NCBI GenBank assembly: GCA_963783145.1
Contig: CAWAMM010000004.1
Span: 326,414 to 390,413, forward strand
DNA length: 64,000 bases
Direction: 5' to 3'
DNA from: an uncultured delta proteobacterium
GTDB taxonomy: Bacteria; Desulfobacterota; Binatia; Binatales; Binataceae
This document shows, piece by piece, positions 8,925 to 58,401 of the stretch; the first letter of the stretch is position 1, and each line of letters opens with the position of its first letter. A program made the translations under genes and the position numbers. A model generated the notes under the pieces. It was not told the DNA's origin and ran no database searches. It worked only from the letters and a program-made list of their open reading frames with translations.

Positions 8925-11682
8925 ATGGCGAGCAATAGTTTCGGCGCGCGTACTACTCTCAAGGTCGGCTCGACCGACTACACCATCTTCAAACTGGAGA
9001 CCCTCGAAAAACGCGGCTACGCGATCGCGCGCCTGCCGTTCTCCATTCGCGTGATGCTGGAAAACGTGCTGCGGCGCGAGGACGGCGGCGTCGTAACCGC
9101 GGATCAGATCGAGGCGGTCGCAAAATTCAATGGCAAGGGCGGCGAGAGCGAGGTCTCGTTCATGCCGGCGCGCGTGTTGTTGCAGGACTTCACCGGCGTG
9201 CCGGTCGTGGCAGATCTCGCAGTGATGCGCGATGCGATCAAGCGTCTCGGCGGCGATCCCGCGACTATCAATCCACTGCAGCCGGTCGATCTGGTGATCG
9301 ATCATTCGGTGCAGGTCGACGCGTCCGGGACTAAGGCCGCATTCGCGACCAACGCCGAACTGGAGTTCCAGCGCAACCGCGAGCGTTACCTGTTCCTTCG
9401 ATGGGGACAGGGCGGCTTCGATAATTTTCGCGTAGTGCCGCCCGACACCGGCATCGTGCATCAGGTGAACCTCGAATTTCTCGCGCCGGTGGTGTTCAGC
9501 TCGAAGGACAACCGAGGCATATCCCGATACAGTGCTCGGCACCGATTCGCATACCACGATGGTCAATGGGCTGGGCGTCGTCGGGTGGGGCGTCGGAGGT
9601 ATCGAGGCCGAAGCCGCGATGCTCGGGCGCTCGATGCCGATGCTGATTCCCGACGTTATCGGCATGCGGCTGACCGGCAGTCTGCGGCCGGGCGCCACGG
9701 CGACTGACCTCGTACTCACTGCGACTCAGATGCTGCGCAAGCGCGGCGTGGTCGGAAAATTTGTCGAATATACCGGGGCGGGCATCAAGACCTTGAGCGT
9801 CGCCGATCGCGCGACGCTGGCCAACATGGCGCCCGAGTATGGTGCGACGATCGGATTCTTCCCGGTCGATCAGCAGACCCTCGACTATCTGCGCGTCACC
9901 GGCAGGCCGGCCGATCGGCTCGCGCTGATCGAGGCGTACTGCAAGGAGCAGGGCCTGTTCCGCACCGATACGTCGCCGGAGCCCATCTTCACCGATACGC
10001 TCGAACTCGATCTCGGCAGCGTCGAGCCGAGCCTCGCAGGTCCGCGGCGTCCGCAAGATCGGGTGCCGCTGGCCAACGCCAAGAAAGATTTTCGCCGGCA
10101 GCTGGTGAAAGAAATCCACGGCGACGTGCAAGGTCCAGCGAAGCAGCGCATCGAGGACTGGATCGAGGAAGGCGGAAACGTCAACGCCGCGGAGCCCGAG
10201 GGCTCGCATCTGAAGCCGCTCGGCGCCAGCGCGCAGGTTGACGCCGACGGCGCCAGTTTCGCGCTGTGCCACGGCTCGCTCGTCATCGCGGCGATTACGA
10301 GTTGCACCAACACCTCGAATCCATCGGTGATGATCGGTGCGGGACTCCTTGCGAAGAAAGCCGTCGCACGCGGGCTCACCGTCAAGCCGTGGGTGAAAAC
10401 CAGTCTCGCGCCCGGATCGAAAGTGGTCAGCGACTATCTCAAGCGCGCCGGTCTGATCGAGCCGCTCGAGCAACTGCACTTCAACATCGTCGGCTACGGA
10501 TGCACCACCTGCATCGGCAACAGCGGACCCGTCGCGGAGGGGATCGCCGCGGCGATCAGCAAGAACAACCTGGTCGCGAGCGCGATTCTGAGCGGCAATC
10601 GCAATTTCGAAGGCCGCATCAATCCGGTCGTGCGCTTCAACTATCTCGCGTCGCCACCGCTAGTGGTCGCCTACGCGATCGCGGGCACCATGGATTTCGA
10701 CGTCGAAACCCAACCGCTGGGTACCGACCAGAGCGGCAAGCCGGTGTTCCTCAAGGACATCTGGCCGACGTCGGAAGAAATCGCGGCGACGGTTGCGAGC
10801 TCGATCGATTCCGAGATGTTCCGCAAATCATATGGAAAAGTCTTCGACGGCGACGAGCGATGGCAGGGCCTCGCGGTTCCGAAGGGAAATCTCTTCCAGT
10901 GGGATGTGAAATCGGAATACGTCAAGGCGCCGCCGTTTTTCGATGGGGTCGGCAAGACGCCTCAGCCGCTGAAAGACATCGTCGGCGCGCGCGTTCTGGC
11001 GGTACTCGGCGATAGCGTCACCACCGATCACATCTCACCGGCGGGAAATATCGCGCGCAACGGTCCTGCCGGCGAGTACCTGGTCGCGCACGGCGTGGAC
11101 CCGAAGGATTTCAATTCGTATGGCGCGCGTCGCGGCAATCATGAGGTGATGGTGCGCGGCACGTTTGCGAACATCCGCTTGCGCAACCTAATGGTGCCCG
11201 GCGTTGAAGGCGGTTTCACCGCGCATCAACCGAGCGGCGAGAAGATGACGATCTTCGCGGCCTCGGAGCGCTATCGCGCAGAAGGCGTTCCACTCATTGT
11301 CATTGCCGGCAAGGAATACGGCACCGGATCCTCGCGCGATTGGGCCGCTAAGGGCACGCAACTCCTTGGCGTGCGCGCGGCGATTGCGGAAAGCTTCGAG
11401 CGGATCCATCGCAGCAATCTGGTCGGGATGGGGGTGCTGCCGCTCGAATTCACCAATGGCCAGAATCGCGAGTCGCTGGGGCTCACTGGACGCGAGAAGT
11501 TTACCATCGCAGGATTGGCGGCAGGCTTGAAGCGTGGACAGAAGCTCACGGTGCGCGCCGAGCTCGATGGCAAGGTCATCGAATTCGAGACGCTCGCGCG
11601 GGTCGACACGCCAGATGACGTCGAATTCATCAAGCACGGCGGGATTTTGCCGTTGACGCTGCGCGAGTTGCTGCACGCTTAG
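8925..11682 (+). pseudogene. acnA: Aconitate hydratase A (AcnA), reading frame broken by an apparent single-base indel around 9505-9530
   Basis: ORF 8859..9707 carries the AcnA N-terminus (MASNSFGARTTLKVGSTDYTIFKLETLEKRGY...HQVNLEFLAPVV). The conserved continuation AYPDTVLGTDSHTTMVNGLGVVGWGVGGIEAEA is in the +1 frame (ORF 9532..11682), which carries the rest including the C-terminal swivel domain. Two overlapping ORFs in different frames. Confidence 0.85.
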
Positions 11683-11703
11683 CTTCGTTGGGGGTGCCAC
11701 CGG

Positions 11704-12435
11704 ATGGAAACCAAGGTCGATGAAATCGCTGACAAAATTTATCGGTTCTCCACGCTGATTCCTGGAGTCGCGGGTCCGGCGGGGCTCACCTTCAACCAGT
11801 TTCTGATCGATGCCGACGAACCGCTGCTCTTCCACACCGGCCAGCGGCCGCTGTTCGCCGCGATTTCCGCCGCGGCCGCGCGCATCATCGACCTCGCGAA
11901 ACTACGCTGGATCACCTTCAGCCACGTCGAATCCGATGAATGCGGCGCGCTCAACGAATGGCTCGCGATCGCTCCCAAAGCGACTGCGGCGCATGGACGT
12001 GTCGGATGTAACATCTGGCTGAACGACATGGCGGATCGTCCGCCGCGCGCGCTCGCAAATGGTGAGGTACTCGACCTCGGCGGAAAGAAGGTGCATCGCA
12101 TCGACACGCCGCATCTACCGCATTGTTGGGATGCCGGGCTGATTTACGAGGAAACCACCGGAACCTTGTTCACCAGTGATGTTTTCACACATCCCGGCGA
12201 GGTGCCGGCGCTCACCGAAAATGACATCGTCGGCCCCGCGCTCGCCCTGGAGAAGGTGCTCCCGTTTACAGCTGTCTCGCCCGAGACGGTTTCGACGTTG
12301 CGAAAGCTGGCGGCATTGTCACCGCGCAAATTGGCGCTGATGCACGGCTCGTCATTCTCGGGGAAGGGACAAGTTCCACTCGAAGCGCTCGCGAGCCATT
12401 ACGAGGAAAAACTGCGCGCTTCCATCGCTAAGTGA
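11704..12435 (+). CDS. MBL-fold / ODP-like (FprA N-terminal-domain-like) metalloprotein
   Basis: Beta-lactamase-like fold signature. The H-x-E-x-D-H metal motif is replaced by SHVESDECG (HxExDE). Confidence 0.5.
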   Translation: METKVDEIADKIYRFSTLIPGVAGPAGLTFNQFLIDADEPLLFHTGQRPLFAAISAAAARIIDLAKLRWITFSHVESDECGALNEWLAIAPKATAAHGRVGCNIWLNDMADRPPRALANGEVLDLGGKKVHRIDTPHLPHCWDAGLIYEETTGTLFTSDVFTHPGEVPALTENDIVGPALALEKVLPFTAVSPETVSTLRKLAALSPRKLALMHGSSFSGKGQVPLEALASHYEEKLRASIAK

Positions 12436-12450
12436 TTTATCAACGTTGAA

Positions 12451-13578
12451 TCAGACGGGGAGTGGCTTTGCGAGATCGAGGCGGACCGCGGCGCCGCTCT
12501 TGCGTGCCGCGTAGCGCGAGAGCAGCCGCACCACCGCGGGCGTCACTTCGCCGATGGCCTCGGGACGGAAGCCGACTACCTCGGCGCCGCGGGTGCGCAT
12601 CATACCCAGCATCGAAAGCCGCAGCAGCGAGCCCACCGCCTGGCAATAGCGGAAGCGCTCGAAGTCCAGCGGCGCCATCGCGTGATAGAGCGGGATGTAC
12701 AGCGACGCGAACAGGGTGCGCAGTGAATTTCCCACCGGGTTGTCGCGCATCCAGCGCGGATGCTCCATCGCCGAGGACGACAGGATCGCGGCAGTCATCG
12801 CGGCGTCGAGATGACGATCGCCGATGTCGGTGTTGACCCAATCGATCACACCGTTAACGCGGAACCCCTCCACCACGACGTTTTGTGGATGGTAGTCCAT
12901 GTGCACCAGCGAAAGCGGCGTGGTGCGGAATTCGGATGCGCGAGCCGCGAGGCGGGCGTGCGCTTCCTTTAGTCCGGGCAGGGGTCCTTGCTCGACGCGC
13001 TGCGCGATTATCTTGAGCATTCGATCAAGCAGCGGCGCGTTGGCATCGATTCCCGCCGGCGCATAGGCGCGCGGGATCTCATCAAGCCCGGACTTACGCA
13101 ACTCCATCTGGTGGAGGCGGACCTGCGCGCGCACGAAGCCGAAAAATCCCAGCGAGAAAGTCTTGAACGCGGTTGCAAAACTGCGCGTCGAGAACAGCGG
13201 CCCGCCGGGCACCCGCTCCATGATAAGAAACGGCGCGCCGAGCACCTCGTGCGAGGGCTCGTAGCCGTACGGTTTCGGAACGCAGAACCCGGCGCCGGCG
13301 AGTTTCGCAATGTTGATGTTTTCGCGCCCGCCCTTCGCGTCAGCGAAGGGTCCCTGGTAGAAGCGCAGCACCAGTGGCGTACGAGGCGGTATCAGAGGCA
13401 GGCGCGAGGAGTTCGACGCGGCTGCGAATTCGAAGACCGTGGTCTCCCATCCGCTGGCGAGGACCTTCAGCGAAAGCAGCGGCGTGCCGAGGTATTCGGC
13501 TAGGCGGGTTTGGATCTCGGCAAGTTCCAGCATCGCAATATTGCGGCTGACGCTAGTACATACGCGACGCGCTGGCAA
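12451..13578 (-). CDS. Phosphotransferase enzyme family protein (APH/CotS/choline-kinase-like kinase)
   Basis: Brenner motif HMDYHPQNVVV and downstream DWVNTDIGD (HxDxxxxN...D). The start may be the internal Met (MLELAEI) at about 13533. Confidence 0.7.
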   Translation of the reverse strand: MPARRVCTSVSRNIAMLELAEIQTRLAEYLGTPLLSLKVLASGWETTVFEFAAASNSSRLPLIPPRTPLVLRFYQGPFADAKGGRENINIAKLAGAGFCVPKPYGYEPSHEVLGAPFLIMERVPGGPLFSTRSFATAFKTFSLGFFGFVRAQVRLHQMELRKSGLDEIPRAYAPAGIDANAPLLDRMLKIIAQRVEQGPLPGLKEAHARLAARASEFRTTPLSLVHMDYHPQNVVVEGFRVNGVIDWVNTDIGDRHLDAAMTAAILSSSAMEHPRWMRDNPVGNSLRTLFASLYIPLYHAMAPLDFERFRYCQAVGSLLRLSMLGMMRTRGAEVVGFRPEAIGEVTPAVVRLLSRYAARKSGAAVRLDLAKPLPV

Positions 13579-13608
13579 GAAACTGACACGCGTGTCAGGT
13601 GTCCGAGA

Positions 13609-14913
13609 TCAGGGTTGCTCAGGTTGACGATGCGGATGCAGTTTGCGCAAGAGTTCCCTCATCAGATGATGATGCTGCGGCTGCGAAGAATCGCGCTCCT
13701 GATCCGATAGCGGGCGTTCTGCCGGCGGCAGGTTCTCATTCGGCACCACCTGCCCGCCTTTGAAGAAGTGGCGCTGCACGATCGAAGAAAGCAGCGGCCC
13801 GTGGGTATCGTGGATATCGATGGAGGTGTCCACCGACAGACCCAGGCGCAGGGGTTTGTCGGCCGGTGGTTCCTCATCCAGGACGATCTTCACCGGGATC
13901 CGTTGGACGACCTTGACCCAGTTGCCGGTCGCGTTCTCGGGTGGAAGCAGTGAGAACGCGGCGCCGGTCCCCATGCTGATGGAGTCGACATGGCCCTGAT
14001 AGATGTGATCCGGGTAGATGTCAGCCTCGATGGTTGTCTTCTGCCCGACGCGGACGTAGGTGAGCTGGGTCTCTTTGAAATTTGCCACGATGTAGAGATG
14101 CTGCGTCGGAACATCCGCCATCAGAGGCTCGCCCGGCTGCACCCGGTGGCCGACGTGAACACTCTTGTGGGTGATGATGCCATCGAAGGGTGCGGTTATC
14201 CGGGTGTATGCGAGGTCGAGCTTGGCTTGCTCGAGCGCCGCACGCGCTTGCTGGACGATCGGACGATCGTAGCGCGAATCATCCAGGGCTTCTTCCTGAC
14301 TCTTTGCTTCCTGGGTCACCGCGGCGCTCGCATCGTCTTTGGCATCGGAAAAAGACGCGGGTGCCGGCGCTTGATCCTGAATCGTTCCGCCCAAAGCGGC
14401 GCGTGCCTGCGATACCTCATGCTGCGCGAGGGCGACGTTAGCCTCGCCCATCCGATAGGCAGTTACCGCCTGATCGTAAAATTCACTAGAAACGACGCCG
14501 GCCTTGCGCAGTTGCTCGGCGCGAGTGTAATCGAGCTTCGCCTGTTTGGCCTGCGAGTCCGCCAGCGCGAGTCCGGCTTCGGCGGCATTGACCTGCGCGA
14601 ACATCTCATCGACGGTTTGCTTGGCGCGCGCCAGTTGCGCCTCGGCCTGGCTGACGCGGACCTGGAAGTCGCTCGGATCGAGCGTCACCAGCAGATCGCC
14701 GCGCTTGACCGTCCAATTGTCCTCGACATAAACCGCTGACACGGTACCGGACACGCGAGTCGAAACCAGCGCCACCGTCCCGTCGACATAAGCGTCATCG
14801 GTCGAGACGTGGGAAGAGAAATAGTTGTAATAACGAATTGCGGGAAAGATGCCGGCGATGACCACCACGATAACGATGGCCAATAGCGCCCGGCGCAGCC
14901 AGGGAGATTTCAT
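13609..14913 (-). CDS. HlyD-family secretion protein / EmrA-like membrane-fusion (periplasmic adaptor) protein with a C-terminal His/Pro-rich tail
   Basis: N-terminal TM anchor. Conserved VSTDDAYVDG...VSTRVSGTV...VKRGDLLVTLD biotinyl-lipoyl-like motif. Coiled-coil middle. Beta-barrel C-terminal part. Confidence 0.85.
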   Translation of the reverse strand: MKSPWLRRALLAIVIVVVIAGIFPAIRYYNYFSSHVSTDDAYVDGTVALVSTRVSGTVSAVYVEDNWTVKRGDLLVTLDPSDFQVRVSQAEAQLARAKQTVDEMFAQVNAAEAGLALADSQAKQAKLDYTRAEQLRKAGVVSSEFYDQAVTAYRMGEANVALAQHEVSQARAALGGTIQDQAPAPASFSDAKDDASAAVTQEAKSQEEALDDSRYDRPIVQQARAALEQAKLDLAYTRITAPFDGIITHKSVHVGHRVQPGEPLMADVPTQHLYIVANFKETQLTYVRVGQKTTIEADIYPDHIYQGHVDSISMGTGAAFSLLPPENATGNWVKVVQRIPVKIVLDEEPPADKPLRLGLSVDTSIDIHDTHGPLLSSIVQRHFFKGGQVVPNENLPPAERPLSDQERDSSQPQHHHLMRELLRKLHPHRQPEQP

Positions 14914-15112
14914 AATTTAATCAGCGCGCCCCGCGACCCAAACGGATCCGCCGCGGCGTCAATCCATGCCTCGAGATGAACAGTTTCGCTAACTTTGCGT
15001 GATCCCGCCATGCTGTCAAACCGCCCGGCGACTTTGCTTGCCGCCCCGGTCATCCATACCGCTTCGTTTGCCATCCCCTTCGTCGCGCGACTTCATCGAG
15101 CCTTCGGTGCCG

Positions 15113-15853
15113 CTAGGGTTGTACGATGGTGACAACCGGTCCGCCAGTAGCGTGTGCGACGACGGCGCCATTGATAAGCAGATCGATATTGAACGGACCG
15201 AGGGTCTGAATCTGTTGGATGGTGGCGTCGACGTCGCCATTGGGACTATCGAATAGTATCAGCGCCGGCACGCGATCGCTGAACTCGAAGCCGGTGTTGC
15301 TGTCCTCGAAGAGACCCGAAAAACGTTCGCTCAGGGGTCCCTTGACGAACAGCCGGACGTCAGGACTTTGCGCGGGAGGAGGAGGGTCGAAGCCCGGAGC
15401 GGTTAGGCCGTTTTGAATCGACGTAGTGCCATAAGGATCGCTGGTAGACTCGACATCCTCGACATTGAAGCCGACGGTGAGCTGCAGGCTGAGAATACCG
15501 TTCCCTCCCGAGAGCTTGGTCGCGATCACCCGCACCGGAGTTTGATTATTAACGATTATGAGGTTCATCGGTACGGAGCCGGTGACCTTCCAGCTAGTAT
15601 GCGAATCGGAAACCAGGGCGGTGAATTGCATGCCTGCCTGGCCGAGGACACGGAAAGCCGCCCCCGGTGGGCTGTTAGGGGTATTACCGACGCCCGTCTG
15701 GAAGGCTCCCAAGCCGCCGTTACAGGCGGGCAGCAGCAAGGCCAGTAGCGCTCCAGCCCAAACCCAAAGACGAACGATTCGCAATCCGCCACGCATCGGA
15801 TGGTTCCAGCTCAAAGCGGGCTCGCCGATGTCCCAGTGCATATCCCAGGACAC
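15113..15853 (-). CDS. Hypothetical secreted lipoprotein
   Basis: Hydrophobic signal ending LLLPAC (lipobox-like). Probable true start is the internal Met (MRGGLRIV) near 15796. No family recognised. Overlaps the upstream gene by 43 nt, so probably co-transcribed. Confidence 0.5.
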   Translation of the reverse strand: MSWDMHWDIGEPALSWNHPMRGGLRIVRLWVWAGALLALLLPACNGGLGAFQTGVGNTPNSPPGAAFRVLGQAGMQFTALVSDSHTSWKVTGSVPMNLIIVNNQTPVRVIATKLSGGNGILSLQLTVGFNVEDVESTSDPYGTTSIQNGLTAPGFDPPPPAQSPDVRLFVKGPLSERFSGLFEDSNTGFEFSDRVPALILFDSPNGDVDATIQQIQTLGPFNIDLLINGAVVAHATGGPVVTIVQP

Positions 15854-17991
15854 GGCCCGGATGCCGAGTCAGAGTTACTGCATGAGCTGGGGCACGGTGA
15901 TGAAGTTGCGCCCGGTTGCGGAACCGTCACGGGTTGGGCAGGGCCGATCGCGGTTGGCGTTGGAATTGGCGTCGCAATCGCGGTTCCGGACATGGTTGCC
16001 CCTGGCGTCGCCGTGGGTAGGGTTTCAAATCGTTGTAATACGTAATCATCGGGCGGAACGCACAGCGAATACTGGGCGTTGCCGTTGGGGTTGCTGGAAG
16101 AGAACAGTCCGGACGCGGTTCCGAGGACCTGGACTTCTTGATTTGCCACCATATCCAGCTTTTCCACCTCGATAGTAGTGCCGCTGTCGGGATTTTGTAC
16201 GGTCCCGGTGATGCTTCCGTGGCCGACACAATCCATCGCAGGCATCATCAACGGCGTCGGCGTGGGCTCCGGCACGGCCGGTGGTGTCGGTTGCGGCGTT
16301 TCGACCGGGGGGACAAAGGCGCACGGCGCCGAGGGCGCCGGGACATCGGCGAGCACCGAAATATCGTGGCCCGGGAAGGGCGAGGTCGCGCCGAGATAGG
16401 GATCAATCGCAACCGCAAACAAATCAAAGTTCGGTCCTGCTCCCGTGATGGGAACATTCAGCGTGAAGGGTTGCGAGGTTTGTTGGTTGCGGAACACTAC
16501 CGGCTGCGTCAACGCCGACACGATCTGATTGGTCCCGCTATTCTCAGCGAAGACCTGCACCATAACGGAGTTACCAGGCGGAGGATCAGTTACCAGGTTT
16601 ACGGTGCCACTGATGTATCCGGTCGTCAGCGAGAAGTTGCAGATAGTCGAAGGGTTGGCGCTTGATGCAGAACAGACCTGATTCTTATTTGCCTTCAAAA
16701 AGACGCCGGAGAAGAGCGACGAATATCCGCTGGCTGTGACTCGCACCGCTAGATCGGGATTGCCTAACGGGATTTGGGAGAAGGGCGCCGGGTTCTTGGT
16801 GGTCCCGGGCAAGGGATAATCTCCCGACTGATCCGTGGTGGCGCTTGCAACCGCCACGCACTGGTCGGGATTGCTGAGACAGAACCCGGGCGCGGGAGGT
16901 GTTGGTCGAGGCTTCGGCAACATCGTCGCAGGAGGAGGTGCCAGCAGCTCCAATTGAGCGCCTTGAATCGCGCTCCCCGTGCAACCATCGGAAATGGTGC
17001 CGGTGAAGGTGGTCGGAGTGACCGCAGTGGGGGACAGGTTTTCGGTTACGGACAGGCCGGGTACCAACCGAATGTTCTGCACCGTCTCGAAAGAGCCGGT
17101 GCCACCGGACGTGAAAATATCATAAGTAGTTCCGCCCGAGGCGGCCGGCAACTCCAGGGTATAGACGCCTTTGGCCTTTACCGGAGCGGTCTCAATTATC
17201 GTGTTGGTGCCGCTGACTTCCGCCGATACTGAAAGGGGCGCAAATGTTGAGCTTGAGGAGGTTCCCTTGAGCGAAACGCTACCGGTCACCGTACCGAGAA
17301 ATGAACCGAAATTTACTTCACTGGCGCTAATGTTTGCCACGTAGGGGTCGCCGGTGTCGACTGGTCCCGTAGCTATGCTCACTGCGAGTTGGAGTACCAG
17401 CGGCGCGGTTGCGTTCGCGCTGACGGTGAGCGGTGTCGGCAGAGTGAAAATGACATTGTTGAGGTTCGCACTAATGGTGTTGAACTCCAACGGATAGTTG
17501 ACGCAGCCCTCGGTGTTGGAGATTGCCGCTTGGCACGCCGGTACGATGGTGCCCGGCAGCAAAGGGTCCACCAGCACTTGCACCGTATTATAGGTCGCCG
17601 CCGGCACCCCTCCGATGTTGAAAAAGGTCGCCTGCGTCTGGCCCTTGATCAGATCGAGTTGCAAATCCCCTGGATTTTGCTGGTTCCCAGTGCCGACCCC
17701 AGACGGTACCGCTATGGTGACCCAACCTGGTGAGGTCGAGGTCGCACCACTGCTTTGATTGATGCGGATGCCGGAAATATTCAGCAAAACGCTGCGGAAA
17801 TTCCCCTGCGGAGGCACTCCCACCAATGCCACTGCTACGCTGGCGCTGGTCGGCGCCGGAGTTGGACTGGAACTGCCGCCGCCGCCGCATCCGGATGGTC
17901 CAACCAGTAAGCCGCACAAAAGAATCAGGGGTGGCAGGATGGAAAAAACCATCCACCACGGATGTTGATGCTTCACTCGTGAATCACTCAA
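15811..17991 (-). CDS. Large Thr/Ser/Pro/Gly-rich surface lipoprotein with repeated beta-sandwich (CarboxypepD_reg/Cna-B-like) modules
   Basis: Signal peptide plus Cys-Gly-rich lipobox region (LLVGPSGCGGGG). Low-complexity PTPAPT linkers. Recurring G.I.G.V....G.Y.L patterns typical of carboxypeptidase-regulatory-like domains. 726 aa. Confidence 0.55.
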   Translation of the reverse strand: MSDSRVKHQHPWWMVFSILPPLILLCGLLVGPSGCGGGGSSSPTPAPTSASVAVALVGVPPQGNFRSVLLNISGIRINQSSGATSTSPGWVTIAVPSGVGTGNQQNPGDLQLDLIKGQTQATFFNIGGVPAATYNTVQVLVDPLLPGTIVPACQAAISNTEGCVNYPLEFNTISANLNNVIFTLPTPLTVSANATAPLVLQLAVSIATGPVDTGDPYVANISASEVNFGSFLGTVTGSVSLKGTSSSSTFAPLSVSAEVSGTNTIIETAPVKAKGVYTLELPAASGGTTYDIFTSGGTGSFETVQNIRLVPGLSVTENLSPTAVTPTTFTGTISDGCTGSAIQGAQLELLAPPPATMLPKPRPTPPAPGFCLSNPDQCVAVASATTDQSGDYPLPGTTKNPAPFSQIPLGNPDLAVRVTASGYSSLFSGVFLKANKNQVCSASSANPSTICNFSLTTGYISGTVNLVTDPPPGNSVMVQVFAENSGTNQIVSALTQPVVFRNQQTSQPFTLNVPITGAGPNFDLFAVAIDPYLGATSPFPGHDISVLADVPAPSAPCAFVPPVETPQPTPPAVPEPTPTPLMMPAMDCVGHGSITGTVQNPDSGTTIEVEKLDMVANQEVQVLGTASGLFSSSNPNGNAQYSLCVPPDDYVLQRFETLPTATPGATMSGTAIATPIPTPTAIGPAQPVTVPQPGATSSPCPSSCSNSDSASGPCPGICTGTSASPL

Positions 17992-29063: not shown

Positions 29064-31655
29064 TCAGGTTTCCTCAGAGGTAAGTTGAGCCCAGTTCGGT
29101 CCCCATTTGAGATCAGCCTTCAGGGGAACCAGGAGTTCGGCCGCCCGCTCCATCTCGCCTTTGGCAATTTCCTTAACGACAGCGAGGGATTTGGCTTCGA
29201 CCTCGATCAGCAATTCGTCATGCACCTGGAGCAGCATTCGAGCCTTGAGACTACGGCGTTTTAGCTCTCCGGCCAACTTGATCATGGCCACCTTTATCAA
29301 ATCCGCCGCAGTGCCCTGAATCGGCGTATTAACCGCGATTCGCTCCGCCTGCGCCCGCGCACCGCCCTCGGGCGACCGCAGCTCGGGAAGATAGCGGCGT
29401 CGTCCATACATGGTGGCAACGAAGCCGGTTTCGCGCGCCTTCGCCAAAGTTTCGTCGATAAACGCGCGCACTCCCTCGAGGCGCTCGAAGTAGCGCTTGA
29501 TATATGACGAAGCTTCACCCAGCGGTATTCCGAGTTCGCCCGCGAGGCGCGATGGACCCATCCCATAAATGATGCCGAAGTTGATAACCTTTGCGATGCG
29601 ACGAGCATTGGCATCCACCGTATCCCGAGTCAGCCCCAACAACTCGACTGCCGTGCGGATGTGGATATCCTCGCTGCTGCGAAAAGCGCTGGTTAATGTT
29701 GGATCTTTTGACAGATGCGCCAGCACTCGCAGGTCAATCTGCGAATAATCTGCCGAGAGCAAGACGCTTCCTTTCTCCGCGACGAATGCGCGCCGGATGC
29801 GCATCCCATCCTCGGTGCGGGTCGGGATATTCTGCAGATTCGGGTCGCTGGAGCTAAGCCGTCCCGTCGCCGTCAGCGCTTGGTGAAAAGTCGTGTGAAT
29901 CCGGCCCGTTTTCGGGTCGATGAGCTCCCCGAGCGCGTCCGAGTAGGTCGACTTCAGCTTGGTGACCGACCGATATTCCATCAGCTTGCGCGGCATTGGA
30001 TGGACCGCCGCGAGCTTCTCCAGCGTGTCGACATCGGTCGAGTACCCGCTCTTGGTCTTCTTTAGCCCCTTTACGGTCAGCTTAAGATGATTAAACAGAA
30101 CATCGCGAAGCTGAATCGGTGAGTTGAGGTTGAACTCGCGCCCAGCCAGCTCGTAGCACTCGCGCTCCAGCTTGGCGGCCTCCGCGCCGAATTCCTTCGA
30201 GATGGTTTTAAGCGCGGCTGCATCGACCGCGATGCCGGTTTCCTCCATCTCATCGAGGACCTTCGCGCATGGCATCTCGATATCGTTGAAAAGCGGCATC
30301 AGCCCGTCGCGTTCGAGCTTCGGCAGCAGCGCGAGCCGCAGCGCCGCGACAATCGCGGGTTCGGCGCCGCTAGGGGCGCCACCAGACAGCCCTGCCAGAT
30401 GCTCATGATAAAGGTCGCCGAGGTTCGGCTCCGGCTTGCCGGAGTTCACCAGAAACCCGGCCATCATCGTGTCGAAGTCCACTCCCGCGAGGCGAATCTG
30501 GAATGGCGACAGCTTGCGCAGATGGGTCTTGAGGTCGTGGACTTCCTTGGGCGGCGAGGCCTCATTGAGCAGCGGCGCGGTTCTGCCGATGAGATGCGTA
30601 TCGAAGAGAAAGGTTTTCGCCTCGCCGGAAATTTTCAGTTGCGCGGCGCCGATCGCATTCGCGCTGAGGTTCAACGATAGCCGCGGCGCGCGCTTCAGTT
30701 CCTCGAGCGCGGCGGAAAGCGTCTCCTCGGTGACCTCGATCTCCTCGCCCGCGCGAACGGGAATCGCCACCTCCGAGGGCGTCAGCTCCTGGAGTAGCGA
30801 GTTGAACTCCAACTCGCGCAGCAGCTCCGACAGCGCCTTCTCATCGATAGTATCCCACGCGAAATCCTCGGGGCCGAGGTCGAGCGGCACCTCGCAGTCG
30901 ATCGTCACCAGCTTGCGCGCCAGCATCGCATCGTCACGATGCTCGGTGAGCAGCGCGGCGACCTTTTTGGCGCCGCGAATCTTCTTCGATTCCTCCACCT
31001 TGCCGAGATTGGCATACAGATTGTCGAGGCTGCCGAATTCCTGGATGAGCGCGGACGCGGTCTTCTCTCCAACGCCTGGCACGCCCTTGATGTTGTCGAT
31101 CGAATCGCCCATCAGGGCCTGGATGTCGATGAGGTTCCGGGGCTCGACGCCGAAGCGCTCGCGCACCTCTTTCACGCCGGTGGATTTGTCGCGCATCGGA
31201 TCCCATAGCCGCACATGAGGCCCGACCACCTGCATGAAATCCTTATCGGCCGTGATGATCACAGAATCGATCTTTTTCTTGACTCCGGCGGTCGCGAGGG
31301 TCGCGATGACGTCGTCGGCCTCATAGCCTTCGCGCACGATGCGCTTGATGCGGAACGCGTCGATGACCTTATAGATGTACGGAATCTGCACCTGCAGATC
31401 GTTGGGCGTCTCGGAGCGATTGGCCTTGTAGTCGGTGAAGAGATCGTCGCGGAAGGTTCGCTTGGGCGAATCGAAAATCGCGCCGATATAGCTCGGATGC
31501 TGCTCCTTGATCAACTTGAGGAACATCCGGATGAAGCCGTAGACCGCGTTGGTCGGCATCCCGCGCGAGTTGTTGAGGGGAGGGAGGGCGAAGAAGGCTC
31601 GAAAGATGTAATTCGAGCCATCGACCAGAAAGAGTTGCCGCCGCTCCTCGACCAT
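29064..31655 (-). CDS. polA: DNA polymerase I, apparently lacking 3'-5' exonuclease motifs
   Basis: 5'-3' exonuclease N-terminus (LFLVDGSNYIFRAFFAL). Pol A motifs (RRIAKVINFGIIYGM, QVHDELLIE). 863 aa. No DTET-type Exo I motif seen in the middle domain. Confidence 0.9.
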   Translation of the reverse strand: MVEERRQLFLVDGSNYIFRAFFALPPLNNSRGMPTNAVYGFIRMFLKLIKEQHPSYIGAIFDSPKRTFRDDLFTDYKANRSETPNDLQVQIPYIYKVIDAFRIKRIVREGYEADDVIATLATAGVKKKIDSVIITADKDFMQVVGPHVRLWDPMRDKSTGVKEVRERFGVEPRNLIDIQALMGDSIDNIKGVPGVGEKTASALIQEFGSLDNLYANLGKVEESKKIRGAKKVAALLTEHRDDAMLARKLVTIDCEVPLDLGPEDFAWDTIDEKALSELLRELEFNSLLQELTPSEVAIPVRAGEEIEVTEETLSAALEELKRAPRLSLNLSANAIGAAQLKISGEAKTFLFDTHLIGRTAPLLNEASPPKEVHDLKTHLRKLSPFQIRLAGVDFDTMMAGFLVNSGKPEPNLGDLYHEHLAGLSGGAPSGAEPAIVAALRLALLPKLERDGLMPLFNDIEMPCAKVLDEMEETGIAVDAAALKTISKEFGAEAAKLERECYELAGREFNLNSPIQLRDVLFNHLKLTVKGLKKTKSGYSTDVDTLEKLAAVHPMPRKLMEYRSVTKLKSTYSDALGELIDPKTGRIHTTFHQALTATGRLSSSDPNLQNIPTRTEDGMRIRRAFVAEKGSVLLSADYSQIDLRVLAHLSKDPTLTSAFRSSEDIHIRTAVELLGLTRDTVDANARRIAKVINFGIIYGMGPSRLAGELGIPLGEASSYIKRYFERLEGVRAFIDETLAKARETGFVATMYGRRRYLPELRSPEGGARAQAERIAVNTPIQGTAADLIKVAMIKLAGELKRRSLKARMLLQVHDELLIEVEAKSLAVVKEIAKGEMERAAELLVPLKADLKWGPNWAQLTSEET

Positions 31656-31709
31656 GATCGTCTCAGGTTATCCGAGGCGGCAGGGAAAATGAAATCGTGG
31701 ACGATCCAG

Positions 31710-31778
31710 GTAGGGGCGGTTCGCGAACCGCCCGCAAGGACGTGGCGATGTGAGATCCTTCCCGATTGCCCCATCGGT
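31710..31778 (+). repeat. REP element, 5' flank of the RAYT gene (GTAGGGGCGGTTCGCGAACCGCCCGCAAGGACGTGGC...GATCCTTCCCGATTGCCCCATCGG)
   Basis: Perfect palindrome GGGCGGTTCGCGAACCGCCC. About 70 bp is shared with the 3' flank copy. Confidence 0.8.
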
Positions 31779-31835
31779 TGGAAAGCGTCAGAGGATTCTT
31801 TGCGGGATGCAAACTGTAAACCGATTGAGGCGTCA

Positions 31836-32360
31836 ATGAGTAGCGCGATACCTCGCCGACGCAGCGTGCGTTTGGACGGATACGATTACTCCTCTGAGGA
31901 ATTATATTTCGTAACCATCTGCACCGATGGTCGCGCGCCTCTCTTCGGGGAAATCATCGATGGCGAGATGATCCTTAACGCGTCAGGATCGATCGTCGAT
32001 GGGATCTGGCGGACGATGTTCCGCGTCTCGGAGGATTCGGAAACCTGGATTGTGATGCCGAATCACCTTCACGGAATTATTGCCATTGGCGATATCGCTG
32101 CGGGCGGTTCGCGAACCGCCCCTACGAAGAAACCGCTCGGGCGATGGGTGGGAGCGTTCAAGACCGCGTCGACGAACCGCATCAATGAAGTTCGCGAGAC
32201 CACTGGCTCGGTCATCTGGCAGCGAAGCTTCTATGAACACATCATTCGAGACGAGAGATCGCTGGAGCGGATAGTGGCCTATATTCGGGATAACCCAATG
32301 CGCTGGGGCACCGACCCCGAAAATCCGGAGGCCTGCAAGCGCGGCAATTCCTCCTCGTAG
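31836..32360 (+). mobile_element. REP-associated tyrosine transposase (RAYT, IS200/IS605-like HuH TnpA_REP), 174 aa
   Basis: RRRSVRLDGYDYS...YFVTICT N-terminus. HuH motif (PNHLHGII). Catalytic Tyr motif (WQRSFYEHIIRDE). The ORF-track entry 31215..32360 is an antisense read-through into polA. Start set at the ATG at 31836. Confidence 0.85.
32099..32124 (-). repeat. REP copy in inverse orientation inside the RAYT coding sequence (encodes AAGGSRTAPT)
   Basis: GCGGGCGGTTCGCGAACCGCCCCTAC is the reverse complement of the flanking REP core. Confidence 0.75.
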
Positions 32361-32430
32361 GGGCGGTTCGCGAACCTCCCGCAACGATGTGGCAACAGCT
32401 AGATCCTTCCCGATTGCCTCATCGCAGCGG
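32357..32430 (+). repeat. REP element, 3' flank of the RAYT gene; starts on the stop codon (GTAGGGGCGGTTCGCGAACCTCCCGCAACGATGTGGC...GATCCTTCCCGATTGCCTCATCGC)
   Basis: Direct repeat of the 5' flank copy with a few substitutions. Confidence 0.8.
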
Positions 32431-32761
32431 GTCGGCCCGTCATCATCCTACGCAGCGTCCGGCGGGTCACGCCAAGCAACATCGTGATTTTACTGACGGT
32501 GCGTCGACCAGATTCGAACGCCCGGTAAAGCATCCTCGCCGGACATGAGTCCTCGGGCAGGTAGCTTCTCCCTAGCGATATTGCTCCAAATTTCCTCGAT
32601 AACCCATTGATGCACCTTATTCAGCAGTAAAAATTGACTGATTCGCAGAAATCATCTTGGACTCGCTTTATTCTTCATTTATATGCTAATAGGCGTGTAA
32701 CTCGGCTGGTTATTCTTCTGTTTCGCTGAGGCCACGACATACGCACGGGAGGGAGAATGGA

Positions 32762-33715
32762 ATGAGGAATCGCACCTTAAACACGGTTGCCATGGCGATT
32801 GCGATTTTTTTGACCGCAGTCGCATTTTCGGCGTCGGCTGATGCGGGCTCGCTGCGCGAGGGTGCGACGGGTTCGGGGAGCGCGGTTACCGGAGCATTGC
32901 CGGGACAGGTTCTGTGGACCTATTACCAGACCGCTGATGTCGCCAACCTGAGTTACTCCACAGCTTTTAAAGAATACGCGTACTTCGTCAACTTTCCCGG
33001 AGGAGCGGCCGGGCGGGTAGTCGTTCCGGCAAAACTACCATCAACTCCAGTTACCGTGCGTGTCGGGAAAATTTGCTCGGGTTCGCTTGTCCCCTATGAG
33101 ACGACTTTTTCCTGTCCGGCGGATAACATCATCCGCCTCACCAACCCCAACGGTGGCGCAAACGGCAATCTGGCCGGTGCCGATCCGCAGACGGTTTGCG
33201 CGATGATCTATGTTTTCGATGATGACGAGGAAATGGGCGAGTGCTGCGGTTGCCCTTTGAGCTCGGCGCAGCTGGCGACCTTCTCGGTGGAAAACAACCT
33301 TACGGCGAACTGGGGACTTGCGGGGGGACCTGAGGCGGGACAGCAGACCAACGGGGCAATCGCTGTCGTTGCCACGGCGCCGAATGGTCCGGGGAGCACT
33401 TGCAACCCGACCAATCTTCCAGGCTACAGCGTCACCAACGCCAATAATCTGCTGGGCAGCGTCACGAACAGTCAAACCTCTTTCGTACCACTCGGCCGCA
33501 CCACAACACTTATTTCCGTTTCTGGCGGCGACGCCCAAAATTTCGTTGCGAATGGACCCAAAGTCGGTCTTCGGATTCAACCTGCGATCACCGAAACCGC
33601 GCTTTCCGATGACGCCGGTGGTGACCCAACCAACCTCACCTATCTGCAGAATCAATGCGGCGCGCTGATCGGCAACGGCACCGGCGGCGGTATCTGCAAT
33701 TGTCCGACCGAATGA
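32762..33715 (+). CDS. Hypothetical secreted Cys-containing protein
   Basis: Signal peptide (AIFLTAVAFSASA). Preceded by an AT-rich promoter region and a GGGAGG RBS. No family recognised. Confidence 0.5.
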   Translation: MRNRTLNTVAMAIAIFLTAVAFSASADAGSLREGATGSGSAVTGALPGQVLWTYYQTADVANLSYSTAFKEYAYFVNFPGGAAGRVVVPAKLPSTPVTVRVGKICSGSLVPYETTFSCPADNIIRLTNPNGGANGNLAGADPQTVCAMIYVFDDDEEMGECCGCPLSSAQLATFSVENNLTANWGLAGGPEAGQQTNGAIAVVATAPNGPGSTCNPTNLPGYSVTNANNLLGSVTNSQTSFVPLGRTTTLISVSGGDAQNFVANGPKVGLRIQPAITETALSDDAGGDPTNLTYLQNQCGALIGNGTGGGICNCPTE

Positions 33716-56571: not shown

Positions 56572-57369
56572 TTAGGAGACCGTCCATCCGCCATCAATAA
56601 TGAAGGGCGCGCCGGTCGCGAATGACGAATCATCGCTGGCGAGGAACAGCGCGGTCTTCGCGATTTCCTCGGGCCTGCCGACGCGGCCGAAGAACGACGT
56701 GCGCGCGCCGCTATTCGGAAGCGCGCCCGCGGCCTTGTTGATGCGCTCCACCATCGGCGTGTCGATCGCGCCGGGACAAATCGCATTGACGCGGATGTTG
56801 TAGCGTCCGTATTCCATCGCGGCGACGCGGGTCAGCGCGATGACCCCGGCCTTCGACGCGCAATAAGCCGCCGCGCCTTTGTTCGCGACCAGCCCGGCGA
56901 TCGAGGCAGTGTTGATGATCGAGCCGCCGCCGTTTTTGATCATGTGCGGAAGCGCGGCCTTCATGCCGAGCCATACGCCGCGCAGGTTGATCGCGATGAC
57001 CTTGTCGAAGGCCTCCTCGCTCAGTTGCGCGAGGAAGTTGCCTTCCCCCTCGATGCCCGCATTGTTGTAAAGAATGTTCGGCGCGCCGAAGCGCTTGATA
57101 GTCTCATCGACCATCGCGGTGGTGTCGGCCGATAAGGAGACGTCGACCCGCATCGCGAACGCACTGCCGCCCGCGGCTTTGATTTGCTTCGCGGTCTCCT
57201 CCGCGGCTTCGAGGTTGATATCGACCGCGGCGATCTTCGCGCCTTCTTTGGCGAACAGCAGCGACGCGGCGCGGCCCATGCCCGATCCGGCGCCGGTGAT
57301 GATGGCGATTTTATTTTCCAGTCTCATGATGATGTTCTCCCGCGGAAATGCATCCGCGCCGAGGAACAT
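56572..57369 (-). CDS. SDR-family oxidoreductase
   Basis: ITGAGSGMGRA...NNAG...YCASKAG. Confidence 0.85.
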   Translation of the reverse strand: MFLGADAFPRENIIMRLENKIAIITGAGSGMGRAASLLFAKEGAKIAAVDINLEAAEETAKQIKAAGGSAFAMRVDVSLSADTTAMVDETIKRFGAPNILYNNAGIEGEGNFLAQLSEEAFDKVIAINLRGVWLGMKAALPHMIKNGGGSIINTASIAGLVANKGAAAYCASKAGVIALTRVAAMEYGRYNIRVNAICPGAIDTPMVERINKAAGALPNSGARTSFFGRVGRPEEIAKTALFLASDDSSFATGAPFIIDGGWTVS

Positions 57370-57436: not shown

Positions 57437-57470
57437 GTAGGGGTCGTTCGCGAACGACCCGCAGCGAAGG
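57437..57470 (+). repeat. Orphan REP copy (GTAGGGGTCGTTCGCGAACGACCCGCAGCGAAGG)
   Basis: Same GTAGGGG-NNN-TTCGCGAA-NNN-CCCGCA architecture as the RAYT-flanking REPs, with compensatory changes in the stem. Confidence 0.7.
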
Positions 57471-57546
57471 CGCAATTGCCAAGATCCTCCGCGACAGCCA
57501 CATCGCCGCGGGCGCATCGCGATGCGTCCCTACCACGAAGGTGCGG

Positions 57547-58401
57547 TTACGGTTTTTTCGTCACCAACTGATTCATCTCCATATGGCTGATGAGGTCGGG
57601 TGCGGTGAACGCAGTATAGGTGCTGCTCTTGAATAACTCCTCGGCGAGGCGACGCAGGGCAGTCAGCGCGGCACGCGCGGGGCCGCCGCCGGTGCTGACC
57701 CGGGCGACTCCGAGTTTCTCCAATTCGAGCGCGCTGGGCATTCCCGGCAGCACCATCACGTTGACAGGCCCGCGGATCGCCGCAGTGAGTTTCCCGATGA
57801 TCTCGGCGTTGGCCGGGCCGGGAACGAAAATGCAATCGGCGCCGGCGGCCAGATACGTATTGGCGCGGCTTACCGTATGCTCGAAGCGTGCGGACTTGTC
57901 GCCGATCGCGTGCAGAAAAACATCGGTGCGCGCGTTGATGACGAGGGGCACGCCGGCGGCGGTGGCCGTCTCGCGAACCGCTTTGATACGCGCGACCGCG
58001 GTCTCAACCGGGAATAGCTCATTCGCGCCGCCCTTCATCGAGTCCTCGAGGTTGATACCAACCGCACCGGCCTCGATGACCGCGCGAATCGTAGCCCTAA
58101 GACCATCGAGATCCGAAGCGTATCCGGCTTCGATATCCGCACTCAGCGGCACGAGGAGCCCGCGCGCGATGCGCCGGATGACGTCGAGCATCTCATCGCG
58201 CGAAACTGCCTCGCCATCCGGATAGCCAAGCGAATTCGCCACGCCGGAGCTGGTCGTCGCGACGGCGCGAAAACCGGCCGCCTCGAAAATCTTTGCGCTG
58301 GCCACATCCCAGGCATTCGGAAGCACGAGGATCCGCGAGCGGTCATGCAACTTACGAAATGCCTCCGCCTTCTGCCGTTGCGTCGCTATATCTATCGTCA
58401 T
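57547..58401 (-). CDS. Isocitrate lyase/PEP mutase-family protein (2-methylisocitrate lyase / carboxyvinyl-carboxyphosphonate phosphorylmutase-like)
   Basis: ICL/PEPM signature (LVLPNAWDVASAKIFEAAGFRAVATTSSGVA...DIEAGY). Confidence 0.8.
   Translation of the reverse strand: MTIDIATQRQKAEAFRKLHDRSRILVLPNAWDVASAKIFEAAGFRAVATTSSGVANSLGYPDGEAVSRDEMLDVIRRIARGLLVPLSADIEAGYASDLDGLRATIRAVIEAGAVGINLEDSMKGGANELFPVETAVARIKAVRETATAAGVPLVINARTDVFLHAIGDKSARFEHTVSRANTYLAAGADCIFVPGPANAEIIGKLTAAIRGPVNVMVLPGMPSALELEKLGVARVSTGGGPARAALTALRRLAEELFKSSTYTAFTAPDLISHMEMNQLVTKKP

Follow-up and report, generated by a model that had tools for sequence, protein, structure and literature searches.

We think that this locus is a REPtron, that is, a domesticated HuH/Y1 RAYT gene accompanied by its cognate GTAG-footed REPs, one of which lies inside the gene itself and is passively tolerated there, and we would put the probability of this reading at roughly 80%. 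The gene was found in a 64,000-nt stretch of DNA from an uncultured delta proteobacterium (the window), and on sequence it fits most closely the TnpA_Y1 subclass 2.4 of Quentin, Siguier, Chandler and Fichant (2018, BMC Genomics 19:475; PMC6006769), the subclass with in-frame REPs inside the gene, which is the same as RAYT group 4 (Bertels et al. 2017, GBE 9:2110). The arrangement is real but ordinary, since it has been known for subclass 2.4 since 2018, and where the earlier note on this DNA called the internal REP unusual we have to disagree: a REP read in-frame between the HuH and Tyr motifs is a published hallmark of that subclass (PMC6006769).

The RAYT (TnpA_REP-like) gene occupies positions 31836..32360 of the forward strand, running from an ATG at 31836 to a TAG at 32358-32360, and encodes 174 aa. 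The proposal that the product is a HuH transposase of the RAYT/TnpA_REP type is borne out by its predicted Y1 fold, its motifs, an NCBIfam match and the flanking REPs. Indeed, when the AlphaFold2 model (mean pLDDT 80.4) was compared with the PDB by Foldseek, the top matches were 2xm3, 4er8 and 2vjv (ISDra2 TnpA, E. coli TnpA_REP and IS608 TnpA; E 6e-6 to 1e-4), and the first 30 matches were all Y1 transposases, namely those of ISDra2, IS608 and IS200, TnpA_REP and an S. tokodaii enzyme. Profile searches gave scores below the curated cutoffs. The best and sole NCBIfam match, NF047646 (REP_Tyr_transpos), reaches 69.3 bits (E 3e-19), below its equivalog cutoff of 80; this model was, we assume, trained on E. 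coli-type proteins. Pfam Y1_Tnp (PF01797) reaches 21.8 bits against a gathering cutoff of 23 (E 2e-4) and covers the C-terminal half alone, and many homologues carry a precomputed PF01797 match. The Y1_Tnp domain is split here by the REP-bearing loop, and it is because REP-coded peptides split this domain that the Pfam and NCBIfam scores of these genes fall below the cutoffs.

The motifs were assigned from the residue roles established for E. coli TnpA_REP (PMC3479197), in which W94, Q95, E100, H101 and R104 read the GTAG foot (PMC6006769). In the window protein H77-L78-H79 aligns with H59-M60-H61 of 4ER8, and W128, Q129, E134, H135 and R138 align with the five foot-reading residues and would make up its own GTAG-recognition motif. 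The segment WQRSFYEHIIR had been taken for the Tyr motif, which is wrong, as it is precisely this segment that aligns with the GTAG-recognition region of 4ER8; the catalytic tyrosine is instead Y149 in AYIRDNP, aligned by phmmer with Y115 of the E. coli enzyme and followed by N153-P154. H77, H79, Y149 and N153 are all intact, and the HuH and catalytic Tyr are invariant in the homologue alignment. The Tyr motif therefore reads Y-x-x-x-N-P and not the IS200-type Y-x-x-x-Q, as the classes are defined in PMC6006769. In codon alignments with relatives the gene has a dN/dS of 0.10-0.20, which at that level of comparison demonstrates purifying selection on the protein, and the identical protein was recovered on seven metagenome contigs, the longest of 1.03 Mb. 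The gene is present on ERZ25039491 contig_27570, ERZ25039522 contig_4937 and ERZ25039507 contig_21378, which measure 0.7-1.03 Mb.

On both sides of the gene stand REPs of the single-foot kind, in which a GGG...CCC stem comes directly after the GTAG. The upstream REP (31710..31736, forward strand; GTAGGGGCGGTTCGCGAACCGCCCGCA) consists of a GTAG foot, the perfect 20-nt palindrome GGGCGGTTCGCGAACCGCCC and then GCA, and is predicted to form a hairpin in single-stranded DNA. It is followed at 31737..31776 on the same strand by a REPIN-type linker with a conserved tail at 31754-31776, beyond which the right arm is not recognisable. The downstream REP (32357..32383, forward strand) lies in direct orientation relative to the upstream one and its palindrome has one mismatch (AACCTCCC), so that the claim that both flanking repeats open with a perfect palindrome holds upstream and fails downstream. 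Its linker and decayed right arm extend over 32384..32451 of the forward strand, with the tail at 32402-32424 and the arm at 32427-32451, GCGGGTCGG...CCTAC. The direct repeats of about 70 bp described in the earlier note are accordingly 67-nt direct repeats, each made of a REPIN left arm plus linker, and the tail that they were said to share, GATCCTTCCCGATTGCCYCATCG, is indeed found at those two places and nowhere else in the window, where no occurrence is expected. Alignment with an intact REPIN elsewhere in the window and with the downstream REPIN of a relative, L081, identifies this shared tail as the REPIN linker. The 3' repeat had also been placed at the TAG stop codon, and the stop at 32358-32360 does coincide with the TAG, bases 2-4, of the GTAG foot of the downstream REP; the same layout, with the stop codon supplied by the REP foot, is seen in L081.

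That intact REPIN is a complete extragenic REPIN/BIME at 57437..57533 on the forward strand, composed of a left REP (GTAGGGGTCGTTCGCGAACGACCCGCA) whose stem varies in a compensatory way, a linker that shares homology with the tail, and a right REP in inverted orientation with CTAC at its end. It sits between ORFs that end at 57369 and start at 57547, and its fold is a single long hairpin (-25.8 kcal/mol, z -2.05). The REPtron reading had been said beforehand to depend on further REP copies, and the related REPs of this inverted doublet provide them, bringing to five the REP units visible in 64 kb. With up to three mismatches allowed, the 20-nt palindrome has three occurrences in the 64 kb, where 0.02 would be expected. 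Folding of the single REPs with their flanks as ssDNA predicts the expected 8-10-bp hairpins, but since shuffled GC-rich sequences fold nearly as well, the z-scores are just -0.5 to -1.2 and the REPIN at 57.4 kb alone stands out; for this reason we took the significance of the REPs from exact-repeat statistics and not from folding energy.

The internal REP, reported by the earlier note as an inverse copy of the palindrome between the HuH and Tyr motifs, is confirmed at 32099..32125 on the reverse strand, and it is an exact reverse complement of the upstream REP (100% over 27 nt). It is read in-frame, with the GTAG foot on the antisense strand, and supplies the codons for A88-T97 (AAGGSRTAPT) of the beta3-alphaC loop. 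Residues 88-96 have a pLDDT below 50 in a model that averages 80, and in that predicted structure the REP is shown to encode a disordered surface loop between strand beta3, which bears the HuH, and helix alphaC. Two accounts of the internal copy had been offered, a REP insertion tolerated in-frame and a gene segment that doubles as a recognition hairpin. The former is favoured, because the loop is disordered, because sister genes have a decayed or absent copy, and because the REP is mostly extragenic.

What is conserved in this segment is the DNA and not the peptide. Among the 11 genes with GGSRTAPT, the third positions of all seven REP codons are identical (100%), against 47-56% in conserved control motifs, and it is from these frozen positions that we draw the distinction. 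The window gene and its relatives L087 and L081 do not differ at all over eight REP codons, at a dS between the window gene and L081 of 1.25. The same peptide encoded by unrelated nucleotides in the relatives would have meant coincidence; they share instead the nucleotides at synonymous sites. Conservation does not extend to every close relative, however. The internal REP is partly decayed in L090 and fully decayed in L091, and the loops of L088 and L089 are four codons shorter and have no REP, with the flanking inverted REPs kept. Such sister genes show that the internal copy is dispensable.

To place the loop in its family, we surveyed 82 homologous genes in 86 loci from many phyla, whose proteins share 37-53% identity. 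GTAGGG and/or CCCTAC occurs within the HuH-to-WQR stretch of 67 of the 82 genes (both in 45, neither in 15), at 3.6-4.2 foot motifs per kb in this stretch as against 0.25 per kb across whole loci. As to the reading frame of GTAGGG there, 42 cases are in frame 0, 14 in frame 1 and none in frame 2, in which a TAG stop would arise. Single-foot internal REPs carry CTAC at the 3' end in 16 cases and GTAG at the 5' end in six, an orientation bias that, in our judgement, does not clearly exceed the one that avoidance of stop codons would give by itself. The palindrome centres vary among loci while the two arms change in concert, and the stems of the loop palindromes are mostly perfect across the family. 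Copies per loop range from 0 to 3, at positions from 9 to 37 codons past the HuH proline. The centre of the loop REP also follows its surroundings. With up to two mismatches allowed, the internal 14-nt centre recurs within 1.2 kb of its own flanks in 36 of 59 genes (61%) and in the flanks of other loci in 4%, and under a stricter test with an exact 14-mer it does so in 18 of 53; these sequence comparisons show covariation of the loop REP with the REPs around the same gene. As for the protein motifs, Y[IV]xxNP is present in 78 of the 82 genes, the middle residue of the HuH among homologues is L in 29, V in 24, I in 16, F in nine and M in four, and the fourth residue of the Y motif is D in 26, N in 22 and E in 11. 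Distances vary with the loop, from 45 to 96 aa between the HuH proline and WQR and from 64 to 115 aa between HuH and Tyr (family median 81, published median 88), and 25 residues separate Y149 from the stop, which is also the family median.

Metagenomes tell us where the REP lives otherwise. Of 83 judgeable sites of the exact 24-mer REP, 82 are separated from every detectable RAYT by over 400 nt, and at least 120 metagenome contigs have the REP and no RAYT. No metagenome site was classified as lying inside a RAYT loop, and about a dozen that were translated by hand have stops in all neighbouring frames. By this count the REP is overwhelmingly extragenic in metagenomes.

How such a system might work is suggested by E. 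coli TnpA_REP (PMC3479197, PMC3333891). By analogy, the enzyme would bind REP hairpins on single-stranded DNA and read the GTAG foot through its W-Q...E-H...R motif, and Y149 would cut and rejoin the DNA, so that REP and REPIN copies spread and are renewed. The internal copy would be a member of this REP population that landed, or was inherited, in the one stretch of the gene where extra residues are tolerated, and the renewal process that also keeps extragenic REPs uniform may keep it identical to the population. An insertion would survive solely if its frame does not turn the TAG of the foot into a stop. Passive insertion alone leaves the persistence of a perfect palindrome in most family members unexplained.

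It is possible, if unlikely, that the internal REP is instead selectively maintained, either as an autoregulatory hairpin in mRNA or ssDNA on which the enzyme or RNases act, or as a built-in 'seed' copy. A footed palindrome in the same loop of 67 of 82 genes, despite protein identities of only 37-53%, would be expected on this account, as would the mostly perfect stems and the frozen synonymous sites. In addition, among 25 long loci there are nine whose internal REP is perfect and has no second copy within about 20 kb, so that local gene conversion cannot maintain the internal REP in those cases, and the family has the patchy, multi-phylum distribution that was also published (PMC6006769). Were selection indeed at work, it would explain how a perfect palindrome persists at one place in most members of a very old subclass that spans many phyla, why its synonymous sites do not drift and why lone internal copies exist in about a third of long loci; a 'seed' would mean that each transfer of a RAYT gene brings with it a REP from which a REP population could be founded anew, and a self-recognition or autoregulatory hairpin would let the enzyme or RNases limit RAYT expression. 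Against this, a constrained, intact gene is kept in L090 and L091, where the REP is decayed, and in L088 and L089, where it is absent, and 15 of the 82 genes have no foot motif. The variable copy number (0-3) and position (9-37 codons past the HuH proline) look like insertion turnover and not like a fixed functional site.

An autonomous insertion sequence of the IS200/IS605 type, with the flanking hairpins as its left and right ends, is very improbable. The window protein does of course share the Y1 fold with the transposases of IS608 and ISDra2, which are among its top structural matches, and it may, as they do, recognise subterminal hairpins in single-stranded DNA. The genomic contexts of close relatives are unrelated (polA in the window, dnaN/PMT in L087, a sigma factor/anti-sigma pair in L081), and one locus, L004, has two near-identical tandem copies, both of which would suit a mobile element. 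The Y-x-x-x-N-P motif, however, is that of class 2, and the GTAG REPs that flank the gene also occur far from it, at 57.4 kb in the window and in the RAYT-free metagenome contigs. The flanking repeats are direct and of one REPIN type, not distinct left and right ends, the window's ORF list has no tnpB-like ORF adjoining the gene, and the gene is present once in 64 kb; the Y-x-x-x-Q motif, domain-swapped dimers, distinct ends, high element copy number and frequent tnpB of IS200/IS605 elements are not seen here. On the motif, the direct REP flanks, the single copy and the missing tnpB we reject this candidate. That the palindrome arises by mere chance from GGSRTAPT as a conserved protein motif, or that a REP has broken the gene and left a pseudogene, is scarcely credible: the peptide does recur in many homologues, but third positions that are 100% identical in the REP and about 50% identical in truly conserved motifs, together with other homologues in which this place holds different palindromes read in other frames, contradict the former, and an intact reading frame with its catalytic residues, purifying selection and seven contigs with the identical protein contradict the latter.

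Returning to the REPtron, its likeness to subclass 2.4 covers the class-2 motifs NHuH, WQ and Y-I-x-x-N-P, an insertion of variable length and sequence between beta3 and alphaC, the lack of a conserved C-terminal tail domain, in-frame REP copies between the HuH and Tyr motifs, flanking REPs that are long (with a GGG/CCC stem base) or 'double-foot' (GTAG...CTAC), a low REP copy number and a patchy spread over many phyla, Cyanobacteria and Bacteroidota included. The agreement is close but not literal, in that the consensus NH[IFV]H and YIxNNP are NHLH and YIRDNP in the window protein (WQ agrees), which at 174 aa is also shorter than the median of 194, and the window's internal REP has a single foot and runs opposite to the two flanks, themselves direct repeats, which differs from the subclass. 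E. coli TnpA_REP itself (subclass 2.2; PDB 4ER8; Ton-Hoang 2012, Messing 2012) shares the HuH/Y1 fold (TM 0.50, rmsd 4.3 Å), the W, Q, E, H and R residues, a catalytic Tyr with N four residues on and a REP-flanked gene, at about 21% identity and with motifs of the DHLH and YIHYNP type; unlike the window protein, it closes its active site with a C-terminal extension, its REPs are imperfect and bulged, and its gene has no internal REP.

The repeats too have known counterparts. As in REPINs (Bertels and Rainey 2011) and BIMEs, the units at 57437-57533 and 32357-32451 are inverted REPs around a conserved linker of about 45 nt; unlike those systems, the copy number appears low, with one free REPIN in 64 kb, and the RAYT-flanking copies have lost their right arm, completely upstream and partly downstream. 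REPs within protein-coding genes were described by Di Nocera et al. (2013, BMC Genomics 14:522), and here as there a GTAG-tagged palindrome is read in-frame, giving a short peptide in a tolerant region of the protein. The difference is that our host gene encodes the presumptive mobilising enzyme of the REP, and that the site is common to a whole subclass. Other scans of the surroundings were uneventful: there was no sigma-70-like promoter in 31500-32800 and the single terminator-like match there was at chance level, no Rfam family reached its gathering score in the whole window, base composition around the locus gave no compositional island, and a small antisense ORF at 32399-32533 has sub-threshold HTH matches only (E 0.04-0.1).

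The locus is thus one more example, from an uncultured bacterium, of a feature that was published in 2018. For those who work on these proteins, GGSRTAPT, GAVREPPL, GRFANRPY and their analogues (VGARHAVPL, VGATRRVAPT, AGFKPAPT and others) are GTAG-REPs in translation and are not to be taken for protein motifs. Our observations go slightly past the published description in that the REP in the loop covaries with the local REPs, has frozen synonymous sites, avoids the frame that would yield a stop and is dispensable in sister genes.

The 174-aa open reading frame at 31836–32360 (plus strand) encodes a protein with the fold and motifs of a Y1 transposase, and its sole Pfam and NCBIfam matches, to Y1_Tnp (21.8 bits) and REP_Tyr_transpos (69.3 bits, E 3e-19), lie slightly under the respective curated cutoffs of 23 and 80. 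The first 30 PDB matches that Foldseek returns for its AlphaFold2 model (mean pLDDT 80, with 45 homologues as input) are all Y1 transposases, including ISDra2 TnpA and IS608 TnpA, and 4ER8, the complex of E. coli TnpA_REP with a REP hairpin, superposes with a TM of 0.50 and an rmsd of 4.3 Å. In the E. coli enzyme, H59 and H61 form the HuH motif, Y115 is catalytic and N119 coordinates a metal (PMC3479197), while recognition of the GTAG foot falls to W94, Q95, E100, H101 and R104 (PMC6006769); the equivalents here are H77/H79, Y149 and N153, together with W128, Q129, E134, H135 and R138, and phmmer aligns residues 126–158 with 4ER8 residues 92–124. Because these residues match the E. coli roles, WQRSFYEHIIR, which an earlier note had taken for the tyrosine motif, is instead the predicted GTAG-recognition motif, with A-Y149-IRDNP as the tyrosine motif. 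A relic disrupted by a REP is ruled out by purifying selection on the gene (dN/dS 0.10–0.20 against six relatives at 60–83% identity) and by its presence, intact and identical, on seven independent metagenome contigs, which together point to a working gene.

Close relatives at 63–85% identity sit in unrelated neighbourhoods: the window gene lies 180 bp from the divergent polA (29064–31655, minus strand), and those of three closer relatives lie by dnaN and a PMT-family glycosyltransferase (L087, 1–464), a sigma-70/zf-HC2 pair (L081, 904–2201) and an acetyltransferase/MazE region (L088). Over the time separating these relatives, the REPtron has therefore changed place or been transferred. Two of the neighbourhoods are those of replication genes, perhaps by coincidence.

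The locus is a real, well-formed REPtron, as the earlier note had outlined it, with an in-frame REP inside the RAYT gene. The upstream REP GTAGGGGCGGTTCGCGAACCGCCCGCA (31710–31736, plus strand) consists of a perfect 20-nt palindrome preceded by a GTAG foot and followed by GCA, and the inverse copy reported within the gene is indeed its exact 27-nt reverse complement (32099–32125, 100%). The downstream REP (32357–32383) has the upstream orientation, and bases 2–4 of its GTAG form the TAG stop of the gene. Allowing up to three mismatches, the palindrome occurs at these three sites only in 64 kb, against 0.02 expected, and a 23-nt tail only at 31754–31776 and 32402–32424, against none expected. 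The proposed flanking repeats are thus right as to their shared tail and the stop codon in the 3′ copy, but the palindrome of that copy is not perfect, having one mismatch. A relaxed search adds a fourth REP, GTAGGGGTCGTTCGCGAACGACCCGCA (57437–57463), a variant with both stem arms changed together, and its inverted partner ending in CTAC (57510–57533); the two delimit a complete extragenic REPIN/BIME (57437–57533) between the minus-strand ORFs 56572–57369 and 57547–58401, which belongs to the family of the RAYT-flanking REPs, with compensatory stem variants, and folds as a single long hairpin (−25.8 kcal/mol, z −2.05). In alignment A2 its linker is homologous both to the tail that the RAYT-flanking repeats share and to the linker within an intact REP doublet, which lies immediately downstream of L081, the closest sequenced relative; each flanking direct repeat of about 70 bp is therefore a left REP plus REPIN/BIME linker. 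The downstream repeat has a decayed right arm (GCGGGTCGG...CCTAC, 32427–32451); in the upstream repeat a right arm is not recognisable.

A 44-aa minus-strand ORF (32399–32533, MLYRAFESGRRTVSKITMLLGVTRRTLRRM...) overlaps the downstream linker and decayed arm and resembles a helix-turn-helix fragment, with below-threshold Pfam matches to HTH_31 (E 0.036) and an Xre-like HTH (E 0.098), and is possibly the remnant of a gene, possibly an ORF that arose by chance. Directly 3′ of the locus, a 317-aa ORF (32762–33715, plus strand) has a hydrophobic, signal-like N-terminus, several cysteines and no Pfam match, and its gene is also called beside the RAYT on the other contigs carrying the locus.

More than 3,000 homologues of the RAYT protein fall below an E of 1e-5. 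Among 45 that were aligned, GGSRTAPT recurs at one position (absent in some, doubled in one), and several C-termini read GAVREPPL, the identical palindrome in another frame. Across 80 genomic loci from about 20 phyla and six closer relatives, nearly every gene has a perfect palindrome, GTAGGGGC-N-GCCCCTAC, just after the HuH strand, and its centre differs from locus to locus with both arms covarying (GGTTCGCGAACC, ACGGCATGCCGT, GACCCGCCGGGTC, GGGTTTCAAACCC, AATTCATGAATT, GTATTGCAATAC), so that the loop is translated as GGSRTAPT, VGARHAVPL, VGATRRVAPT, VGAGFKPAPT, VGAIHELPL and others. GTAGGG and/or CCCTAC lies within the HuH-to-WQR stretch in 67 of 82 genes (both in 45), at a density of 3.6–4.2 per kb versus 0.25 per kb over whole loci; in some, the loop holds two or three copies in tandem or a split doublet. 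Of the GTAGGG motifs, 42 stand in codon frame 0 and 14 in frame 1, and frame 2, which would create a TAG stop, is empty, the mark left when insertions are screened for an open reading frame.

Two loci hold RAYT pairs: side-by-side paralogues in L003 (9471–9657 and 10214–10379) have differing internal REPs, GCACGGCCGTGC and GGTTCGCGAACC, and near-identical tandem duplicates in L004 (8725–8911 and 10211–10397) share one. In L056, a Deferrisomatales MAG locus, at least 24 copies of GGGCGACGCATGCGTCGCCC are regularly spaced in alternating orientation over some 7 kb around the RAYT (9767–16449), which has the same REP internally.

The earlier note had called the internal copy unusual; on the contrary, an in-frame internal REP is an already published hallmark of its subclass. 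In the TnpA_Y1 classification of Quentin, Siguier, Chandler and Fichant (BMC Genomics 2018, 19:475; PMC6006769), subclass 2.4, equivalent to RAYT group 4 of Bertels et al. 2017, has the motifs NH[IFV]H, WQ and YIxNNP, a median length of 194 aa, a variable beta3-alphaC insertion, no C-terminal tail domain and 'long' or 'double foot' (GTAG...CTAC) REPs, and is plentiful among Cyanobacteria and Bacteroidetes and scattered in other phyla. Our homologue set shares these motifs as NH[LVIFM]H, WQ and YIx[DNE]NP, along with the short C-terminus, and has a median HuH-to-Tyr distance of 81; the window's NHLH and YIRDNP match the literal consensus only approximately, and it is on such shared features that we would place its RAYT in subclass 2.4. 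The figure of only about 14 genome-wide copies of flanking 16-mers for group 4 (Bertels et al., PMC5581495) fits the low REP density in the window.

It is the DNA that is conserved, with the peptide as a consequence, since every third position of seven REP codons is identical in 11 GGSRTAPT genes, against only 47–56% identity in the conserved control peptides PNHLHG, GAFKT and WQRN, and this answers in the negative the question, posed by the earlier note, whether the same peptide goes with unrelated nucleotides. Synonymous sites are frozen to the point that the window gene, L087 and L081 show no differences over eight REP codons, despite a dS of 1.25 between the window and L081. The internal REP also covaries with the REPs around its own gene: the 14-nt internal centre (up to two mismatches) recurs within 1.2 kb, in the gene's own flanks, in 36 of 59 genes, against 4% when the flanks come from loci whose centre differs. 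Further copies, the other check that the earlier note had proposed, exist both at 57437–57533 and, in metagenomes, as the exact 24-nt core GGGCGGTTCGCGAACCGCCCCTAC on at least 120 unrelated contigs; among the matches listed, the sites are single-foot or double-foot and nearly all fall outside RAYT genes. Of the 83 sites among those matches whose distance from a contig end allows a judgement, 82 are separated by more than 400 nt from every detectable RAYT gene and sit in sequence with stops in all frames. The window's REP is primarily an extragenic element, its intragenic copy being exceptional.

Why, then, is a perfect palindrome so regularly retained in the loop? Passive tolerance alone does not explain it, nor does it explain why, in 9 of the 25 genes that have 5 kb or more of flank to either side, the internal REP is the only copy in a locus of about 20 kb (up to two mismatches in the 14-nt centre). 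Lone perfect or near-perfect copies are found in L003, L004, L005, L021, L022, L024, L033 and L036, and with no second copy in about 20 kb, local gene conversion cannot keep them intact. Selection on the internal REP, whether it serves co-transfer as a seed copy or acts as an autoregulatory hairpin, would account for such cases, and we regard it as unlikely in view of the sister genes. Within the window's own clade, the copy is identical in L081 and L087; it has three substitutions in L090 and is decayed beyond recognition in L091, which is flanked by REPs of another stem variant; and L088 and L089, with a loop four codons shorter and no REP in it, retain the canonical geometry of a GTAG-hairpin upstream and a hairpin-CTAC downstream. 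Moreover, residues 88–96, exactly those encoded by the REP, have pLDDT <50 in the model, between strand 77–83 and helix 101–120. By these comparisons the internal REP is dispensable, in line with the insertion tolerated in frame that had been suggested at the outset.

By analogy with E. coli TnpA_REP, the enzyme would bind REP hairpins on single strands and read their GTAG foot, and tyrosine-mediated cleavage and rejoining would spread and renew the REPs. The internal copy may then be a REP whose place in the only tolerant loop goes back to insertion or to inheritance and which is kept like the remaining REP population, and a REPIN landing at the 3′ end of the gene would have created its present stop codon, which the downstream REPIN supplies in L081 as well. 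As for what this means for annotation, the three frames of GGGCGGTTCGCGAACCGCCCCTAC, GRFANRPY, GGSRTAPT and GAVREPPL, will recur as pseudo-motifs in predicted proteins.
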